DNA of 64,000 nucleotides from assembly GCA_963702895.1 (NCBI GenBank), contig OY969767.1, positions 512,001 through 576,000 on the forward strand, written 5' to 3'. Source of the stretch: an uncultured Elusimicrobia bacterium. Lineage in GTDB: Bacteria; Elusimicrobiota; Elusimicrobia; 2-01-FULL-59-12. Below are positions 5,139-63,751 of this stretch, piece by piece (the first letter of the stretch is position 1; each line of letters starts with the position of its first letter). Made by a program: the position numbers and the translations under genes. The notes under the pieces are model-generated. The model searched no databases, had not been told where the DNA came from, and saw only the letters and a list, made by a program, of their open reading frames with translations.

Positions 5139-5221
5139 GTCACCCCGGAGATCCGTAATCCGGGGTCCATCATCGACGTAAAAGACATGATGGATCCCGG
5201 CTGACGGCATGCCGGGATGAC
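5139..5221. repeat. REP-like palindromic doublet, family A (GTCA[C/T]CCC..hairpin..TCCA / TGGA..hairpin..GGGATGAC), long-loop type
   Basis: gtcaccccggagatccgtaatccggggtccatcat ... atgatggatcccggctgacggcatgccgggatgac. Confidence 0.9.
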
Positions 5222-8408: not shown

Positions 8409-9679
8409 AGGCCTTGTCCCATGGCCACACGGAGGTTGACGGCGTTGCTCTTGGCCACCGCGCGGGCGCGCTGCCGTTTGATTCTTAAGTCTTCCAGTTG
8501 CGTGAGGGTCCTGAGCACTTCCAGGTTATTGATGAGCCCCAGGCGGTACTCCCGTTGTTGGACCGTGTAGTTGCGCTCCGCCAGCGTCACCGCCCGTTCA
8601 AAAAACTGAACCTGAGAAAGGCTGTTACGGAGATCCTGATGGGCGTTCTGGATCTCTTGTCGGCCAAGACGCCTGGCTCTTGAGGCCGCAAGCTCAGTTG
8701 CGATGGCCTGTGACCTCGCTTCCTGGACTTGACCCTGGGTCGAGAGTCCTTCGAAAATGGGGACATAGAGCGTAAACATCGCATCCCATCGAACCTCAGA
8801 GAGAGACCCTTCGCGCTCCGTCCAGTAGTCCCCCGTCAAATCCAGGCTGGGTAAATAGCCCCCTTTTGCATAGGCAAGACGATGCTGAGCTGCCCGTTGT
8901 GCGTCTTCTGCGGCCAAGACACTGGGTCGCTTGCTGAGCTGGCCCAAGGCTTCCTCGAGCGTGATGGATGTTGTCTCTGGAAGGGTGTCTAAAAGCGGGA
9001 CCTCCGGCTTCACTTCCGTAAGAAATTGAAGGATTTGACGGGCATTGGCATGGCTCCGGTTGGTTTCTTCGATCTGAGCATCGAGGGAAGCCAGGTCGAC
9101 TTGGGCGCTGAGGACTTCACTGTCACGGGACTTGCCCAATTGCACGCGGCGCTCAAGTTCGTCGAGGCGCTCTTGGGTGAGACCCCGCTGGGACTTTAAG
9201 ATGCCCAGTTCTTCCTGTAAGTCGAACGAGGTGAAATAGATCGTTGCCAGATCCTTGAGAAGATCAAGCTCCGCTTGCTGGCGCTGCCGGCGGGCTTCCA
9301 TGGTCATGGCTTTGACGGCGGCTATCGCACGAAATTCCTTGAAGCCGTGAAAAAGAGGCTGCGTCAGCTGGAAATAGGACTCGTGTTGACTCGTCCGCTG
9401 CGCATCGAAGGACGAGGAGCCTCCCCCGGGATCATCCCGATAGAGCTGCTTTTTCGTCCACGACAGATGGGGAAGGATCGCTCCTACGCCTTGCTTGTAT
9501 TGAGCTTCGAGTTGACGAATGGTTTCATCGTCTATAGCCAGGGTTTCACTGACCTGGACAGCTTTCTTGAAGCACTCCGCTAAGGTGATGCCACTCGGGG
9601 AAGACTGAGCCTCCATCCCAGGCACAAAGCCGAACAGGAGAGCTTCCCATAAGAGGGCATGGAAGATAAGGCGATTCAC
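8405..9679 (-). CDS. TolC-family outer membrane efflux protein
   Basis: OEP repeat pattern; probable GTG start at 9679 with AAGGA RBS; stop overlaps the RND start. Confidence 0.82.
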   Translation of the reverse strand: MNRLIFHALLWEALLFGFVPGMEAQSSPSGITLAECFKKAVQVSETLAIDDETIRQLEAQYKQGVGAILPHLSWTKKQLYRDDPGGGSSSFDAQRTSQHESYFQLTQPLFHGFKEFRAIAAVKAMTMEARRQRQQAELDLLKDLATIYFTSFDLQEELGILKSQRGLTQERLDELERRVQLGKSRDSEVLSAQVDLASLDAQIEETNRSHANARQILQFLTEVKPEVPLLDTLPETTSITLEEALGQLSKRPSVLAAEDAQRAAQHRLAYAKGGYLPSLDLTGDYWTEREGSLSEVRWDAMFTLYVPIFEGLSTQGQVQEARSQAIATELAASRARRLGRQEIQNAHQDLRNSLSQVQFFERAVTLAERNYTVQQREYRLGLINNLEVLRTLTQLEDLRIKRQRARAVAKSNAVNLRVAMGQGL

Positions 9680-55820: not shown

Positions 55821-57341
55821 ATGGCAATTAAGTCCGAAGAAATTACATCCGTTATTCAAAAACAACTCGAGAGCTTCGAGGGGAAGCTCGAGCTCACGGA
55901 GGTCGGCCATGTGCTGCAGGCCGGCGACGGCATCGCTCGGATCTATGGGTTGAAGAAGGCCATGGCCGGAGAACTGCTCGAGCTTCCGAACCATGTCTAT
56001 GGCATGGTGATGAATCTCGAAACGGATACGGTGGGCTGCGTTCTCTTTGGTGAGGATCACCTTATTAAGGAAGGCGATACAGTCAAGCGTACGGGCAAGG
56101 TCATGGAAGTGCCGGTGGGAGAAGCCATGATCGGCCGTGTCGTCAACCCCTTGGGCCAGCCCATCGATGGCAAGGGTTCCATCAAGACCTCCAAAACTCG
56201 TCTTGTGGAAGTGATCGCCCCTGGTATTGTGGAGCGTCAGCCGGTGAAAGAGCCGTTGCAAACGGGCCTTAAGGCGATTGACTCGATGATTCCCATTGGC
56301 CGTGGGCAGCGCGAGCTCATCATTGGCGACCGCCAGACCGGCAAGACCGCTGTGGTGGTTGACACCATCATCAACCAGAAAAGTGAAACCAGCAACAATC
56401 GACCCATTTGTATCTACGTGGCGATCGGGCAGAAACAATCCAATATCGCCCAAGTCGTGCAGAGACTCACAGATGTGGGGGCGATGGATTACACCGTTGT
56501 GGTCGCCGCGACCGCTTCAGACCCCGCGCCGCTTCAGTATCTGGCGCCCTACGCGGGATGCGCGATCGGCGAAGAGTTCATGTGGGCTGGCAAGCACGTT
56601 CTTTGTATCTATGACGACCTCTCCAAGCATGCCCAGGCCTACCGACAACTCTCACTTCTGCTTCGCCGCCCGCCCGGCCGCGAAGCCTATCCCGGCGACG
56701 TCTTCTATCTCCATTCGCGGCTCCTCGAGCGCGCCTGTAAACTCTCTGATAAGAACGGCAACGGTTCCCTCACCGCTCTGCCGATCATTGAGACCCAGGC
56801 CGGTGACGTTTCAGCCTACATTCCGACCAACGTCATCTCGATTACAGACGGCCAGATTTATCTGGAGTCCAATCTCTTCTACGCCGGCGTTCGCCCAGCC
56901 GTGAACGTCGGGTTGTCGGTTTCGCGGGTCGGCGGTTCGGCCCAGATCAAAGCGATGCGCCAGGTCGCGGGGAAGCTGCGCCTGGACCTCGCCCAATACA
57001 ATGAGCTCGCGGCTTTTGCGCAGTTCGGTTCGGACCTCGATAAGGCGTCATTGGCGCAGCTGGAACGCGGCAAGCGCATGGTCGAATTGCTCAAGCAGGA
57101 TCAATATGTGCCCATGCCCGTTGAGCAGCAGGTGGCGGTCCTTTACGCCGGGTCCAACGGCTTTGTCGATGACGTCCCGGTGGAGGCGATCCGCCGTTGG
57201 GAGGGCGAGTTCCTGGCCTTCCTCGATCGCCGCCACGCGGAGTTGCTGAAGACCGTCCGCGAAAAGAAAATCATTGATGACACGCTCAAGCCGCAGCTTG
57301 AGAGTGCGATAAAAGAATTTAAGGGAACGTTTAAAGCTTGA
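55821..57341 (+). CDS. atpA: ATP synthase F1 subunit alpha
   Basis: [31 protein letters not shown]. Confidence 0.98.
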
Positions 57342-57347
57342 AATGGT

Positions 57348-57378
57348 GTCACCCCGGCGGATAGTGGGCCGGGATGAC
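57348..57378. repeat. Collapsed single-hairpin family A element after atpA
   Basis: gtcaccccggcggatagtgggccgggatgac. Confidence 0.8.
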
Positions 57379-57392
57379 GCCAAAGGCAAATA

Positions 57393-57437
57393 ATGGCCTC
57401 GCTATGCGAAATCCGGCAGATCATTGGTCATGGTTGA
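57393..57437 (+). pseudogene. Degenerate atpG 5' fragment, copy 1 (MASLCEIRQIIGHG*)
   Basis: aataatggcctcgctatgcgaaatccggcaga vs true atpG aataatgccttccttgcgcgaaatccggcgga. Confidence 0.7.
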
Positions 57438-58032
57438 CAGACAGACTCATCCAAAGCTCTATGTGATCGCCGGGCCCAATGGCGCGGGCAAGACAACCTT
57501 CGCGAGGGAATATTTGCCCCGGTTTGCGAAGTGTGACGAGTTTGTAAATAGTGATTTGATTGCCGTAGGAATTGCTCCTTTTGATCCAAGGTCAGCAGCC
57601 CTTGAGGCGGGTCGGATTATGGTCAGTCGGCTGCGTCACTTGGCAGAACAGAACGAAACGTTCGCTTTTGAGACAACCCTCTCGGGGACCAGTCATGTGC
57701 GGCTGCTGAAGCAGGCCAAACGGTCGGGTTTTAGGGTTACCTTGATGTATCTGTGGCTGCCCCATGTCGGGCTGGCCCTTCGCCGCGTGTGGGAGCGCGT
57801 GCAAAGTGGGGGGCATGCTGTACCGGAAGTCGATGTGCGGCGGCGGTTTGGGAGGAGTCTTTGGAATTTGTTTCATGTCTATAAGGCCATGGCAGATGAG
57901 CTCGTTGTGTTTGATAACGCAGGGCGTGTGCCGCATCTCGTAGCACATTCCTCCAGCGGTCGGTTGAAAGTGTGGGATCTTGAGCGCTGGGGCCACATTC
58001 AAGAAGGGATGGAGCTTCACCATGAAAGATAA
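57430..58032 (+). CDS. P-loop ATPase/kinase, zeta-toxin-like (AAA_33-type)
   Basis: IAGPNGAGKTT, FVNSD.IA, FAFETTLSG, RV.SGGH.VPE...RRRF.RS, FDN. Confidence 0.88.
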   Translation: MVDRQTHPKLYVIAGPNGAGKTTFAREYLPRFAKCDEFVNSDLIAVGIAPFDPRSAALEAGRIMVSRLRHLAEQNETFAFETTLSGTSHVRLLKQAKRSGFRVTLMYLWLPHVGLALRRVWERVQSGGHAVPEVDVRRRFGRSLWNLFHVYKAMADELVVFDNAGRVPHLVAHSSSGRLKVWDLERWGHIQEGMELHHER

Positions 58033-58207
58033 GCCGAACAGGTTGGTGCAGGACGCTTTCAAAGCGCTCAAAATCGCGGTTGGACGTGCGCTGGCAGACC
58101 ACGCGCGCCTCGGCCATTCCGTTTATGTTTGGGAAGGCGGCAAGGTCGTGCGCATCTCTGCGGCGCGCCATCCGGCACGAAAAGCCCATCACCGGAAGGC
58201 GGCCTAG
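58022..58207 (+). CDS. Small partner protein of the P-loop ATPase
   Basis: 61 aa, AV.RAL.DH.RLG..VYVW.GGKVV; overlaps the upstream stop. Confidence 0.7.
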   Translation: MKDKPNRLVQDAFKALKIAVGRALADHARLGHSVYVWEGGKVVRISAARHPARKAHHRKAA

Positions 58208-58285
58208 TGGCATCCCTTTGCGCGCACCACTGGGGCATCGGCGGGTGTCCGCCGCGATGCAGTGGCGGACGAAATCAGGCGGAAC
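58207..58285 (+). pseudogene. Degenerate atpG 5' fragment, copy 2, split by a 49-bp hairpin (58222-58270)
   Basis: gtg gca tcc ctt tgc [49 bp] gaa atc agg cgg aac = (M)ASLC|EIRRN. Confidence 0.72.
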
Positions 58286-58304
58286 CTATGAGAGGTCTAG
58301 ACCA

Positions 58305-58640
58305 ATGATTCCCGCACTTAAGAGCAATGAAGAAATGGCTGTAAAAGAGTTGCGAGAGCGCTTGCGGGCTCTCTATGGGTCTCGTCTAAGGCAAACGATT
58401 CTCTATGGCAGCAAAGCCAGAGGTGATTCTGAGGAGGGCTCCGACATCGATGTGTTGGCGGTGATTGATAATCTGCCAGATCATCGAGCGGCTCGAAACC
58501 AGATTCTTCATGAGACAACGCCCATTGATCTGCGCCATGATGTGTTTTTGAGCGTTTTTGCTGTTGACTCTGATTATTTCAGGATGGCGGGAAAGGTCCC
58601 ATTTTACGCCAATGTGAAAGCGGAAGGGATTTCTTTATGA
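58305..58640 (+). CDS. Minimal nucleotidyltransferase (MNT) antitoxin-like
   Basis: LYGSKARGD...GSDIDVL. Confidence 0.88.
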   Translation: MIPALKSNEEMAVKELRERLRALYGSRLRQTILYGSKARGDSEEGSDIDVLAVIDNLPDHRAARNQILHETTPIDLRHDVFLSVFAVDSDYFRMAGKVPFYANVKAEGISL

Positions 58641-59044
58641 CACCTCCCTCCGTTCCAGAGCAAATTATGGATCTTTGGAAAAAAGCGAATGAGAGCCTGG
58701 ATGCCGCGGCTGAGTTGTTGGAGAAGGGGCATGAAGAGTTTTCTGTGTCACGATCCTATTACGCCATGTTTTATGTGACGGAAGCGGTCCTAATGACGAA
58801 AGGACTCGCTTATGCCAAGCATAGCGCTGTCATTGCAACATTTGGGAAGCATTTCATTAAGACAGGTATTTTTGGAGCGGAATTGCGCGAGATGCTGGTC
58901 AAAGCTTTTGAGGATCGGACGGAAGGGGATTATGGAATGACCAATACGTTTTCGCCCGAAGAAGCGAAAGCCATTCTTCTTCGTGCAAAGGAGTTTTGTC
59001 AAACTCTAAGCCAATATCTACGAAAGTCAGGGCATATTCACTAA
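58637..59044 (+). CDS. HEPN-domain protein
   Basis: A.E.L.AA..LL..G, SRSYYAMF, KHSAVI..F, R..GDYG; ATGA overlap with MNT. Confidence 0.88.
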   Translation: MTPPSVPEQIMDLWKKANESLDAAAELLEKGHEEFSVSRSYYAMFYVTEAVLMTKGLAYAKHSAVIATFGKHFIKTGIFGAELREMLVKAFEDRTEGDYGMTNTFSPEEAKAILLRAKEFCQTLSQYLRKSGHIH

Positions 59045-59131
59045 TGGTGTCCCTTCGCGCCCACCACTGGGGCGCCGGCGGGCGTCCTCCGCGTTGCAGT
59101 GGCGGACGAAATCAGGAGGAAGATTAATTCC
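59044..59131 (+). pseudogene. Degenerate atpG 5' fragment, copy 3, split by the same 49-bp hairpin (59059-59107)
   Basis: atg gtg tcc ctt cgc [49 bp] gaa atc agg agg aag att aat tcc = MVSLR|EIRRKINS vs AtpG MPSLREIRRKIKS. Confidence 0.8.
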
Positions 59132-59167
59132 ACTCTGAGATCCTATGAGTTTGGAGAGGAGATAACG

Positions 59168-59581
59168 ATGATTAAAAAGATGTCTCGTATCATTCAAGTC
59201 AAGGTGGCACTTCCTTTGTGCTTGTGCATATTCTTTTCTTCGGGGTGTACGCATTTTTCACCCATAGCCGTTTCGACGAGTTCGGTTAATCCTGAGCGTG
59301 AGATCGTCTTGGGCACCGCTCGAGGTAAGGCCACGAACATCTATTTCCTAGGGATGATTGATAGTAGCCGGATGGGGATGAAGGAAGCTATGGACGATGC
59401 TAAACGTCAGGTGGGGGCGGATAATCTGCTTAATGTGTATGTTGACCAGAAAACTACCTATTACCCTTTCATCCTGCTTCCGTTACTGGTCAAAAGTGAA
59501 ACATTTGTCACGGGTACAGCCATCCAATATAAGGACCGTTCATGGATAAAGCCCGAGCCAGCGGCTGGTAAAAAAGAATAA
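59168..59581 (+). CDS. Putative lipoprotein (TRL-like)
   Basis: Lipobox-like FSSGC; G.A.G.A....LG, NVYVD, VTGTAI; AGGAG RBS; TAATG overlap with atpG. Confidence 0.7.
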   Translation: MIKKMSRIIQVKVALPLCLCIFFSSGCTHFSPIAVSTSSVNPEREIVLGTARGKATNIYFLGMIDSSRMGMKEAMDDAKRQVGADNLLNVYVDQKTTYYPFILLPLLVKSETFVTGTAIQYKDRSWIKPEPAAGKKE

Positions 59582-60555
59582 TGCCTTCCTTGCGCGAAAT
59601 CCGGCGGAAGATAAAGTCCGTCAAATCAACTCAGCAGATCACCAAAGCTATGAAGATGGTGGCAGCGGCGCGGCTGCGCAAGGCGCAGGCGCGTATCCTT
59701 TCGGCGCGGCCGTTTGCCCAGAAGATGGAAGAGTTTATGACGGATCTCTTGGTCAGAATTGAGGGGGAAGAGACCCATCCGCTCTTTGTCCGGCGGCAGG
59801 GGGCGCGCCGGGTGCTCCTTCTCGTCACGGCCGACAAGGGGCTCTGTGGCGCCTTCAATACGAACCTGATTCGCGAGGCGACCAAATATTTGACCAAGTA
59901 TGGCGCGCCAAATGTGGATCTCTATGTGGTGGGGCGTAAGGGCCGGGACTTCTTCCGACGTATGGGCTGTCACATCAGCAAAGAATACCTCAACATGTTC
60001 AACGCGTTGAATTTTGCCCATGCGGAGTTGATTACACAGGATTTACTGAAAGCCTACGTGCCCTCACCCAACCTCTCCCATCCTTCGGCTGGGAGAGGGG
60101 CAGCAGCAGAGCCCCCTCGCCCGCCGCAGGTGGGAGAGAGAGAGCCCGACGCTACGCGGAGAGGCGAGGGTGAGGGCAAAAACATTGTCGCAGTCGATAT
60201 GCTTTACAACGAATTTAAGTCGGTGATTCAGCAGCGCTTGATGGTCAAAACGCTCTTGCCGTTAACGCCCATCGATGAGGTCGAGGTCCAAGAATTTCCT
60301 GATTTTATTTACGAGCCCGACAAAAAAGTCCTTTTCGAGGCCATCATCAGCCGCTATTTGAAGTCCCAGGTCTTTCGTGTGTTGCTCGAGTCGGGCGCCG
60401 CGGAACTCGGCGCGCGCATGGCGGCCATGGATAACGCTACCCGCAACGCCAAGGAACTGATGGAGTCGCTCACGCTTTCCATGAACCGGACGCGGCAGAG
60501 CTCCATCACCAAAGAGATTCTGGAAGTGGTCAGCGGCGCGGAAGCCCTCAAATGA
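59581..60555 (+). CDS. atpG: ATP synthase F1 subunit gamma with an in-frame palindromic insertion
   Basis: QQITKAMKMVAAA, DKGLCGAFN, RMAAMDNAT.NA, RQSSIT.EILEVVSGAEAL. Confidence 0.97.
   Translation: MPSLREIRRKIKSVKSTQQITKAMKMVAAARLRKAQARILSARPFAQKMEEFMTDLLVRIEGEETHPLFVRRQGARRVLLLVTADKGLCGAFNTNLIREATKYLTKYGAPNVDLYVVGRKGRDFFRRMGCHISKEYLNMFNALNFAHAELITQDLLKAYVPSPNLSHPSAGRGAAAEPPRPPQVGEREPDATRRGEGEGKNIVAVDMLYNEFKSVIQQRLMVKTLLPLTPIDEVEVQEFPDFIYEPDKKVLFEAIISRYLKSQVFRVLLESGAAELGARMAAMDNATRNAKELMESLTLSMNRTRQSSITKEILEVVSGAEALK
60061..60176. repeat. Family B palindrome in frame within atpG
   Basis: ccctcacccaacctctccc..gggagagggg ... gggagagagagagcccgacgc..ggcgagggtgaggg. Confidence 0.9.
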
Positions 60556-60649: not shown

Positions 60650-62478
<1,829 letters not shown>

Positions 62479-63038: not shown

Positions 63039-63533
63039 ATGATATACCTTGAACTATTCCGCGCATTGGAACGACAGAACATCCAATACGTGGTCGTTGG
63101 CGGGCTGGCGGTCATCTTCCATGGATTCGCGCGGATGTCTATGGATTTGGATCTCGCCGTTTCTCTGGAATCTCAGAACCTCAGACAGTTTGTTGATCTG
63201 GCAGAGCACCTCGGCTACCGACCTAAACTCCCCGTATCGTTCCGGGACTTACTCGACAAAAATAAGCGAAAAGAATGGGCTGAACAGAAGCATATGTTGG
63301 TTTTTTCTCTTTATCATCAAGAACGCCCTCAAGAGCTGGTCGATGTATTCATCCATGACCTGATTCCATTTCACGAGCTGTTCAAGAGGCATGTCCGCAT
63401 TCCTTTGGGCGAAGACATTGTGCGCGTGGCTTCAATTGAAGACTTAAAGACGATGAAGCGGATGGCGGGCCGACCTCAAGACCTGCAGGATATTGCGGCG
63501 CTGGAAAATCTCGAAAAGAAGAAATTGACGTGA
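63039..63533 (+). CDS. Nucleotidyltransferase-family protein (TA-like)
   Basis: YVVVGGLAV..HG..R.S.DLDL, L..MK..AGRPQD.QD. Confidence 0.82.
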   Translation: MIYLELFRALERQNIQYVVVGGLAVIFHGFARMSMDLDLAVSLESQNLRQFVDLAEHLGYRPKLPVSFRDLLDKNKRKEWAEQKHMLVFSLYHQERPQELVDVFIHDLIPFHELFKRHVRIPLGEDIVRVASIEDLKTMKRMAGRPQDLQDIAALENLEKKKLT

Positions 63534-63751
63534 AGGTATACCCGTATCCTGAGCCTATTCGTGTACTCCAGATTTATTCACCTGAGGCCCAGGCTCAGTG
63601 GGTCCATACGACGCCGCTGGAGCGCCTTAAATGGTTAGATTTTGCATTGCAGGCGGCCTGGGCCGGGGCTGCTTATCGTACGAAAGACTTCAACCTTGCG
63701 TGTCTCCCACGCGTCGGCAAAATCACCCGTCGCCAAAGAAGACGTTCATAG
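63530..63751 (+). CDS. Small hypothetical protein, probable partner of the nucleotidyltransferase
   Basis: GTGA overlap; TP.ERL.WL motif. Confidence 0.55.
   Translation: MKVYPYPEPIRVLQIYSPEAQAQWVHTTPLERLKWLDFALQAAWAGAAYRTKDFNLACLPRVGKITRRQRRRS

Follow-up and report, generated by a model that had tools for sequence, protein, structure and literature searches.

The window analysed here, a stretch of 64,000 nucleotides (nt) from an uncultured Elusimicrobia bacterium (contig OY969767.1, positions 512,001 to 576,000), carries an F-type ATP-synthase operon with the order atpE, atpF, atpH, atpA, a 2,239-nt interval, atpG, a PilZ gene, atpD and atpC. The interval between atpA and atpG contains five co-oriented genes arranged in three blocks, each of which is headed by a degenerate copy of the start of atpG (at 57393, 58207 and 59044; positions refer to the window unless contig C1 is named). 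These copies are designated decoys, and the blocks cassettes with their cargo genes. The genome under study (G000) consists of one contig (C1) of 2.72 Mb, on which the array lies at 569-572 kb.

Degenerate atpG starts in the ATP-synthase operon

The three degenerate copies of the atpG start between atpA and atpG are non-random and are placed at the cassette boundaries. A 19-mer probe built from atpG codons 5-11 was run on both strands of G000 with up to 4 mismatches. It matched 25 times genome-wide, and four of these matches (the real start included) fall on the plus strand of the 2.2-kb interval, where 0.008 are expected; the similarity is well beyond chance. A preliminary description of this DNA had placed the decoys at 57393, 58207 and 59044 and the real start at 59581, and had reported stop/start overlaps at three of the four starts and a common context at two. 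All of these features are present. The TAG of the small partner gene of the first cassette overlaps the GTG of decoy 2 (TAGTG, 58205-58209), the stop codon of the HEPN gene overlaps the start of decoy 3 (TAATG, 59042-59046) and the TAA of the lipoprotein gene overlaps the ATG of the real atpG (TAATG, 59579-59583), whereas copy 1 and the real start have the context AATAATG in common.

Decoy 1 starts with the ATG at 57393, reads MASLCEIRQIIGHG up to its stop and contains the probe match at 57406 (3 mismatches); its TGA (57435-57437) lies 3 nt past the ATG of the next gene at 57430. Decoy 2 starts with the GTG at 58207 and its frame ends in an ATGA overlap with the start of the nucleotidyltransferase gene of the minimal nucleotidyltransferase (MNT) type (58305). 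Decoy 3 starts with the ATG at 59044 and its +1 frame stays open into the lipoprotein open reading frame (ORF). Since the decoy starts overlap the preceding stops and their frames end on or near the cargo starts, the decoys would probably serve, to judge by this geometry, as leader ORFs through which ribosomes translating the operon reach the cargo.

Copies 2 and 3 are 86% identical over 81 nt and are split at the identical base by a palindromic insert of 47-49 nt. The breaks that the preliminary description had marked in these two copies are this insert and not a frameshift. The pattern of the insert has two matches in the window and none in 100 shuffles, and further copies of its repeat family occur elsewhere in G000 and in five relatives (G001, G002, G006, G008 and G010). 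The palindrome was considered as an attC-like or otherwise structured element and was rejected, as the 87-nt site DNA folds no more stably than shuffled sequence (z -0.09 to -1.24) and the palindrome belongs to a dispersed repeat family. The homology of sites 2 and 3 extends from the stop/start overlap as far as a common CCTATGA, with a 20-nt indel, and nothing past that point is related; consequently, the MNT-HEPN cassette is bracketed by direct repeats of about 90-110 nt. Such clear mutual copies, palindromic insert included, in a genome rich in hairpin repeats are what would be expected if slippage or unequal crossing-over, perhaps favoured by the palindromic repeats, had produced tandem copies of the 5' region of atpG, with unrelated genes arriving between them later and the start-like pieces preserved by selection for coupled translation. 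This local-duplication explanation is weighed below with the evidence from relatives.

A fourth decoy at 57344 (MVS...) was rejected, because 57348-57378 is the hairpin of a different, 80-copy repeat. This hairpin repeat has inverted CCCGGC / GCCGGG arms and a TGACG-type tail, and at least 80 copies of it are present in G000, for instance at window position 5211 (C1:517211). The functional atpG itself contains an in-frame insert of about 38 residues (window ~60067-60180, residues ~163-200) rich in Pro, Gly, Arg and Glu. None of the 37 relatives with a match has it, their alignments breaking at residues 157-166 and resuming at 198-206, and the insert resembles a translated repeat element.

All five cargo genes are encoded on the same strand as the operon (Table 1). 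The zeta-toxin-like ATPase is single copy in G000. Its small partner has no family match in Pfam or NCBIfam and is presumed from its position to be an antitoxin. The MNT-type protein gives weak matches, under their cut-offs, to the NCBIfam families MntA and HalB. By domain content, two predicted pairs of the toxin-antitoxin type are therefore present at atpG, namely NTP_transf_2 with HEPN and Zeta_toxin/AAA_33 with the small partner. The lipoprotein has no family in Pfam or NCBIfam; a paralogue with 29% identity is encoded at C1:367669-368127, inside an island that bears recombinases. In guanine-cytosine (GC) content the MNT, HEPN and lipoprotein genes, at 0.46-0.48, fall below the atp genes, at 0.57. 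Crude scans of the interval gave 4 promoter-like sites against 4.4 expected and 8 terminator-like sites against 9.5 expected, with no excess of either. As far as the sequence indicates, the cassettes would be expressed from the host operon.

Table 1. Position and supporting evidence of the features of the array and its flanking genes (aa, amino acids; REP/MITE, repetitive extragenic palindrome/miniature inverted-repeat transposable element)
Feature	Window position	Strand	Evidence
atpA, F1 alpha subunit, upstream of the array	55821..57341	+	506-aa ORF; 81-88% identical to atpA of family relatives
REP/MITE-like hairpin between atpA and copy 1, not a decoy	57348..57378	.	motif 80x in genome, <=1 mismatch
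Decoy 1, 14-codon ORF, first 9-10 codons a copy of the atpG start	57393..57437	+	78% identity to the real start over 32 nt
Cargo 1a, zeta-toxin-like P-loop ATPase	57424..58032	+	Pfam Zeta_toxin 9e-09, AAA_33 6.3e-07
Cargo 1b, small partner ORF, 75 aa from TTG (61 aa from ATG at 58023)	57980..58207	+	ORF list
Decoy 2, atpG codons 1-5 + palindromic repeat (58221/58223-58269) + codons 6-10	58207..58308	+	alignment, 19-mer scan
Cargo 2a, MNT-type nucleotidyltransferase	58305..58640	+	Pfam NTP_transf_2 4.6e-07; GC 0.479
Cargo 2b, HEPN protein	58637..59044	+	Pfam HEPN 1.1e-19; GC 0.461; TAA overlaps decoy 3 ATG
Decoy 3, atpG codons 1-5 + palindromic repeat (59060-59106) + codons 6-13 in +1 frame	59044..59127	+	ORF list, alignment, 19-mer scan
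Cargo 3, predicted lipoprotein, 137 aa	59168..59581	+	ORF; signal peptide then Cys; GC 0.459
Functional atpG, F1 gamma subunit	59581..60555	+	Pfam ATP-synt 7.4e-92

The same junction in relatives and the origin of the working start

The atpA-atpG junction was readable at 14 loci of the family, from nine genomes and five metagenome contigs. It is empty at five of them (G004, G009, L075, L076 and L081), where the TAA of atpA overlaps the ATG of atpG (TAATG), and holds a spacer of 10-110 nt at three others (G007, G010 and G006). The remaining six (G000, G002, G005, G008, L079 and L082) carry cargo, which differs from locus to locus, and their decoys sit at the native position of the atpG start. 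The atpG start was not recovered in G001 and G003. One further contig, L078, has cargo and stops short of atpA, with 800 nt of the cargo visible.

In G002, which belongs to the same genus as G000, an ORF of 117 aa is followed by a 25-codon atpG decoy and then by a toxin-antitoxin-like pair. The array of G005 is headed by a DUF559 endonuclease-like gene, followed by a DUF4160/DUF2442 pair, a methyltransferase and a membrane-protein gene to which a 24-codon atpG decoy is fused. These two long decoys have E values of 6.6e-9 (G002) and 4.7e-8 (G005). The decoys of the other three loci are degenerate and span 8-13 codons: in G008 they flank a DUF4160/DUF2442 pair on both sides, with ATGA or TAATG overlaps, and in L079 and L082 decoys of 8-11 codons at the native start position are fused to secreted proteins. 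The cargo of the relatives thus varies in units bounded by atpG-like fragments. The preliminary description had proposed repeated insertion of cargo a few codons inside atpG, with the 5' end restored each time; this idea is supported by these loci and by the composition of G005 and G002 presented below.

On the other side of the junction, the last 12 codons of the G005 DUF2442 gene (L155, G005:C62, q 8714-9133) copy the 3' end of an atpA gene (...AIKEFKQSFKA), whereas the own atpA of G005 ends in ...QEFKG. To judge by this fusion, the 3' end of atpA may also be replaced by insertions.

The two long decoys permit the native and the imported start to be told apart. The G005 decoy and working start are identical in all 24 encoded residues. 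Of their 72 bases, 18 differ, in 16 codons and synonymously in every case; the longest identical run is 6 nt. The GC content at third codon positions (GC3) is 0.79 in the decoy, 0.42 in the working 5' end and 0.72 in the rest of atpG. In G002 the two copies differ at 9 of 75 nt, again all synonymously, with GC3 values of 0.64, 0.40 and 0.56, respectively. Differences that are only synonymous, together with these GC3 values, indicate that the copies stem from two different functional atpG genes. As the decoy resembles the gene body in GC3 and the working end does not, the decoy is the resident copy and the working start was imported with the insert. The G002 and G005 decoys also end at the same codon (within 1 nt), with unrelated sequence after it. 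The evidence for an imported start comes from G002 and G005 and does not extend to the short decoys of G000 itself.

The same comparisons bear on a serious rival, homologous or homology-facilitated recombination of the Campbell type, in which circular or linear DNA of relatives carrying cargo and a short 5' stretch of atpG would be integrated by host recombination, if necessary with an illegitimate joint, and the stretch thereby duplicated, with no dedicated recombinase involved. The N-terminus of atpG is conserved across the class (76-100% identity), the G002 copies have in common an identical run of 32 nt such as a crossover or conversion would leave, and sites 2 and 3 of G000 could recombine with one another at their degree of identity. 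The atpA 3' end duplicated in G005 suggests that either flank can be duplicated, and a recombinase is missing from every atp locus examined. The rival fits G002, but not G005: with 25% divergence and no run above 6 nt, the G005 pair is too unlike for a RecA-type crossover, and differences that are all synonymous do not stem from decay after insertion. Homology of 27-40 nt is in general a poor substrate for RecA. The coincidence of the G002 and G005 decoy end points despite unrelated downstream sequence, and the parallel array at miaB with its ties to serine-recombinase elements (see below), also argue against this explanation, which is held to be unlikely while deserving serious attention.

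The possibility that the array is an assembly artefact, in which reads from strains with different atpA-atpG content were mis-joined, deserves mention because the genomes of the group derive from metagenomes and the start of atpG was not recovered in two of them. It is regarded as very improbable, given that G000 is a single contig, that the architecture recurs in independent assemblies (G002, G005, G008, L079 and L082) with intact ORFs and precise overlaps, and that the decoys have diverged from each other (78-86%) and are not collapsed identical repeats. None of the public sequencing runs holds the stretch, the top share of sampled words being 0.06 (three runs, 5-6%). Among contigs from sequencing runs, one piece of 259 nt matches the MNT gene exactly (58384-58642) and two of 151 nt match the junction of the zeta-toxin-like gene and its partner at about 97% identity, all without context. 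A contig that appeared to join 57106 to 59632 was set aside: one of its sides is 33 nt at 85% likeness, and it was taken as the conserved atpA/atpG of another organism.

Beyond the family, 53 more distant metagenome loci with both genes served as control; their gaps are -3 to 109 nt and contain no cargo. The class-level comparison set comprises 393 genomes, of which 382 belong to other families. A class-wide search with the 33-aa N-terminus of atpG gave 26 genomes with at least two matches at E<=1. G279, which has two full-length atpG frames and 14% contamination, was left out of the rechecks. Among five double-match genomes rechecked, true decoys are present only in G002 and G005, and of 20 further ones, five kept a second match at E<=0.01. 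The second matches of G381, G106 and G084 were rejected as one gene split at contig ends, that of G350 as lying at contig ends by its coordinates and that of G302 as two full-length frames on separate contigs. No decoy of 24 codons or more was found outside the family in this search, which short ones would escape. A short-protein search with the first 45 residues of atpG was uninformative on decoys, the 120 matches listed covering 93-100% of the query like partial genes at contig ends. The degenerate atpG-start pattern had no match in viral contigs.

Other genes are found in or beside this operon. In several other families, a gene for an NAD-dependent epimerase-like protein of 304-324 aa lies between atpA and atpG or directly upstream of atpG (L019, L020, L022, L023, L029, L031, L034, L037 and L038). 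No atpG decoys were detected at these loci, and the gene appears to be a stable operon member there. The PilZ-domain gene of the window (60650-61042), between atpG and atpD, has an ATGA overlap onto atpD and is found at the same position in G002, G005 and G008 (42-61% identity), with no decoy of the atpD start visible upstream; its conserved position marks it as an old operon resident. Directly 3' of atpC (63039-63751), a DUF6036/AbiEii-like nucleotidyltransferase gene overlaps that of a 73-aa partner in a toxin-antitoxin-like arrangement. This pair has no homology at E<1e-3 to the nucleotidyltransferase pair of the miaB array described below.

A second array at miaB and the proposed course of integration

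A genome-wide scan for other start duplications, as suggested in the preliminary description, revealed a second array in G000, at miaB. The scan works at the nucleotide level and cannot see decoys as short as those of atpG. The miaB gene (C1:947810-949117, minus strand; TIGR01574 above its cut-off) is preceded by six decoys of its own first 8-62 codons over about 6 kb, which makes seven start copies in all (locus L159, C1:946500-955500). The cargo includes a PIN gene with a small ORF, membrane proteins (one cassette being duplicated), a DUF4160/DUF2442 pair, a secreted protein, a nucleotidyltransferase with its partner and a methyltransferase. By domain, PIN with the small ORF and DUF4160 with DUF2442 are predicted pairs of the toxin-antitoxin type. 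Four upstream cargo genes end in an ATGA overlap with a decoy start. Three of the decoys have a common right arm that is not miaB sequence, and the relationships of left and right parts are mosaic. In a genome-wide start scan at the protein level, with repeat zones removed, 23 upstream targets were obtained against 20 in the downstream control, and only miaB was convincing; further weak arrays may exist. The miaB gene (L159 1311-2618) also has an in-frame tandem-repeat insert (...VSEYRSIGVPEYRSTGVPEYRS...) that divides its NCBIfam match into two stretches.

The attachment site at miaB measures about 55 bp. The composite site occurs in 5 of the 393 class genomes, all of them in the family, and in none of the 382 from other families; a reversed-pattern control gave one match. 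In two relatives the site is associated with recombinase genes. In G007 a miaB decoy is followed by an element of about 9.8 kb that reaches miaB and ends with genes for a 259-aa serine recombinase, a 450-aa ORF and a 537-aa large serine recombinase, the new miaB start being located inside the 3' end of the last gene. G002 encodes an orthologue of the 537-aa enzyme (49% identity over 535 residues), after which come a hybrid site, a cassette of one gene and miaB; the left half of the hybrid site is of the recombinase side and its right arm of the cassette type. The G002 enzymes comprise 571 aa (large) and 258 aa (small). Both large recombinases contain Resolvase, Recombinase and Zn_ribbon_recom domains, and their best NCBIfam matches are CcrB, CcrC and CcrA, far under the cut-offs. 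With 126 bits against the required 900, the G007 enzyme is not a Ccr orthologue. A search of the genome contigs for this recombinase family returned only G002 itself and one weak match. The miaB array is the signature of site-specific integration with tandem accretion, in which cassettes without a recombinase keep both arms.

Direct repeats of the end of the target gene flank the elements both at atpG and at miaB. Because the atp array has the architecture of the miaB array, occurs in the same genomes and shows in addition the hallmark of 5'-end replacement, it is read as serial integration of mini-elements. On balance, the atp array is probably the result of serial, most likely recombinase-mediated and non-homologous, integration of cassettes at a site within the first 10-25 codons of atpG. 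Local duplication, introduced above for sites 2 and 3, leaves unexplained the foreign composition and synonymous-only differences of the working ends in G002 and G005, the decoy-bounded cargo that differs in each relative and the recombinase elements within the same architecture at miaB, and is considered quite improbable.

Several observations weigh against serial recombinase-mediated integration at atpG. No recombinase gene was found in the atp arrays of G000, G002, G005, G008, L079 and L082, nor in the visible part of L078, and G000 has no orthologue of the miaB-type recombinase. The only large serine recombinase of G000 lies in an island beside a tRNA-like sequence recognised by eye. Unlike the miaB sites, the atp decoys have no common right arm, except sites 2 and 3 mutually, and their end points fall into at least two classes, at about codons 9-13 and at codon 25. 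The 32-nt run of G002 would permit a homologous crossover, and the short decoys of G008, L079 and L082 match weakly and are recognised chiefly by where they lie.

The large serine recombinase of G000 (C1:372976-374667) was considered as the enzyme of either array and rejected, since it has about 21% identity to the miaB-type enzymes and sits at the tRNA-like sequence. The surrounding island (C1:366500-376500) contains a tyrosine-recombinase fragment, a primase-like gene, this recombinase of 563 aa and the lipoprotein paralogue mentioned above.

Under serial integration, small co-oriented cassettes without promoters would enter one after another inside the first 10-25 codons of atpG. Each incoming cassette would bring a surrogate atpG start, which would leave atpG intact and still coupled to the preceding gene (TAATG), and the decoy would be the attL-type scar that the displaced former start leaves upstream. 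Entry of new cassettes appears to take place at the gene-proximal end. Subsequently, after insertion, the palindromic repeat would invade one decoy, and the MNT-HEPN cassette would next enter, or be duplicated, by recombination between two copies of the composite site. The enzyme would be a large serine recombinase provided in trans. We infer this order of events at the atp array and, by analogy with the miaB array, the action of a large serine recombinase at atpG.

A broader proposal is put forward tentatively, as possible though doubtful. The family may run a dedicated cassette platform that functions like an integron and relies on another principle, gene-start mimicry. In it, mini-cassettes that lack promoters and recombinases would settle in the opening codons of strongly expressed housekeeping genes, those of the ATP-synthase operon included, each with a surrogate start for the gene it enters. 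Selection would maintain the displaced starts as leaders that direct ribosomes to the cargo, serine recombinases in trans would mobilise the cassettes, and defence or toxin-antitoxin genes would owe their expression to translational chaining within an essential operon, which cannot be silenced. If the cassettes are mobile and the leaders functional, the array illustrates a way of placing foreign genes inside an essential operon while keeping it intact. The surrogate start and the coupling leader would then constitute a natural design for stable, stoichiometry-neutral insertion. The miaB site, in turn, offers large serine recombinases of one family, whose attachment site is defined, from a phylum that has been little studied.

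Comparison with known systems

The preliminary description had called the array integron-like. As a functional analogy this stands: like integron cassettes, the atp cassettes are small, co-oriented, without an excess of promoters and rich in predicted toxin-antitoxin genes, and they would be expressed from a promoter upstream, that of the host operon. As a statement of kind it does not. The integron-integrase model TIGR02249, run over the whole of G000, reached at best 91.7 bits against a cut-off of 265, and the four tyrosine recombinases of the genome are located at 368, 694, 1327 and 2517 kb, whereas the array is at 569-572 kb. An attC site is an imperfect palindrome that ends in a GTTRRRY-type core and is placed at the 3' end of the cassette. 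No attC-type core was found at the cassette boundaries, which read CTA[AG]TGG and AATAATG, and the only palindromes at the array boundaries are the dispersed-repeat copies inside two decoys. Unlike integrons, the atp array is without IntI and its repeats are copies of the start of the downstream gene, new cassettes appear to enter at the gene-proximal end, and the recombinases met at the miaB genes of relatives are CcrB-like serine enzymes. No paper on cassettes inside an atp operon was found, judged by title and abstract.

The ssrA islands of Dehalococcoides encode DsiB, a large serine recombinase of the CcrB family, and a small DsiA; they are arranged in tandem at one essential single-copy gene, with direct repeats of the target end, and recombinase-less 'cis-mobilizable' members are explained by accretion (PMC3146451). 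Their pairing of a recombinase of about 540 aa with a smaller one resembles the miaB elements of G007 and G002 (537 and 571 aa with 259 and 258 aa). They differ in that the target is the 3' end of an RNA gene with a 20-bp repeat, whereas here it is the 5' coding end of atpG or miaB, with a surrogate start of 9-25 codons. In addition, the atp cassettes measure only 0.5-0.9 kb, lie inside an essential operon, are translationally chained and have no recombinase in sight.

The staphylococcal cassette chromosome (SCC) elements, including SCCmec, are inserted at the housekeeping gene rlmH by CcrAB or CcrC, and ccr-bearing elements are stacked in tandem with ccr-less pseudo-SCC (PMC13739063, 10.1101/336396). 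They are likewise elements of large serine recombinases, and the best matches of the G007 enzyme point to the same group. On the other hand, SCC elements target the 3' end of rlmH, measure tens of kb and lie outside any operon for an essential complex.

Islands of the dusA type, to which SXT/prfC is similar, are a further known system. They integrate in the 5' end of dusA, supply their own 5' end and leave the remnant at the far boundary, and a MiaB-like gene (rimO) is named among the known island targets (PMC4482086). A working 5' end provided by the element, with the native remnant at the far boundary, is seen at atpG in G005 and G002 and at miaB in G007. In contrast, dusA islands are single insertions of 4.8-185 kb with their own tyrosine integrase, whereas the present arrays consist of mini-cassettes without an integrase, and the miaB enzymes are serine recombinases; Pfam and NCBIfam scans found no integrase in the atp cassettes.

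In the tycheposons of Prochlorococcus, successive integrations at the same site push older elements inward, remnants and partial copies of the target gene are scattered, and the recombinases are of the tyrosine or the large serine type (10.1101/2020.12.28.424599). Their targets are tRNA genes and they have replication modules; neither gene-start mimicry nor translational chaining is described for them.

Taken together, the better-fitting known kind is the tandem accretion of integrative elements and their recombinase-less derivatives, as in SCC and ssrA islands, and not the integron. Pile-ups of elements at tRNA and tmRNA genes and at rlmH are already well known. Three features are new here. 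The target is the 5' coding end of a gene that lies well inside an essential operon, the units are very small, down to a single toxin-antitoxin pair, and they are chained to the operon by stop/start overlaps and decoy leader frames.

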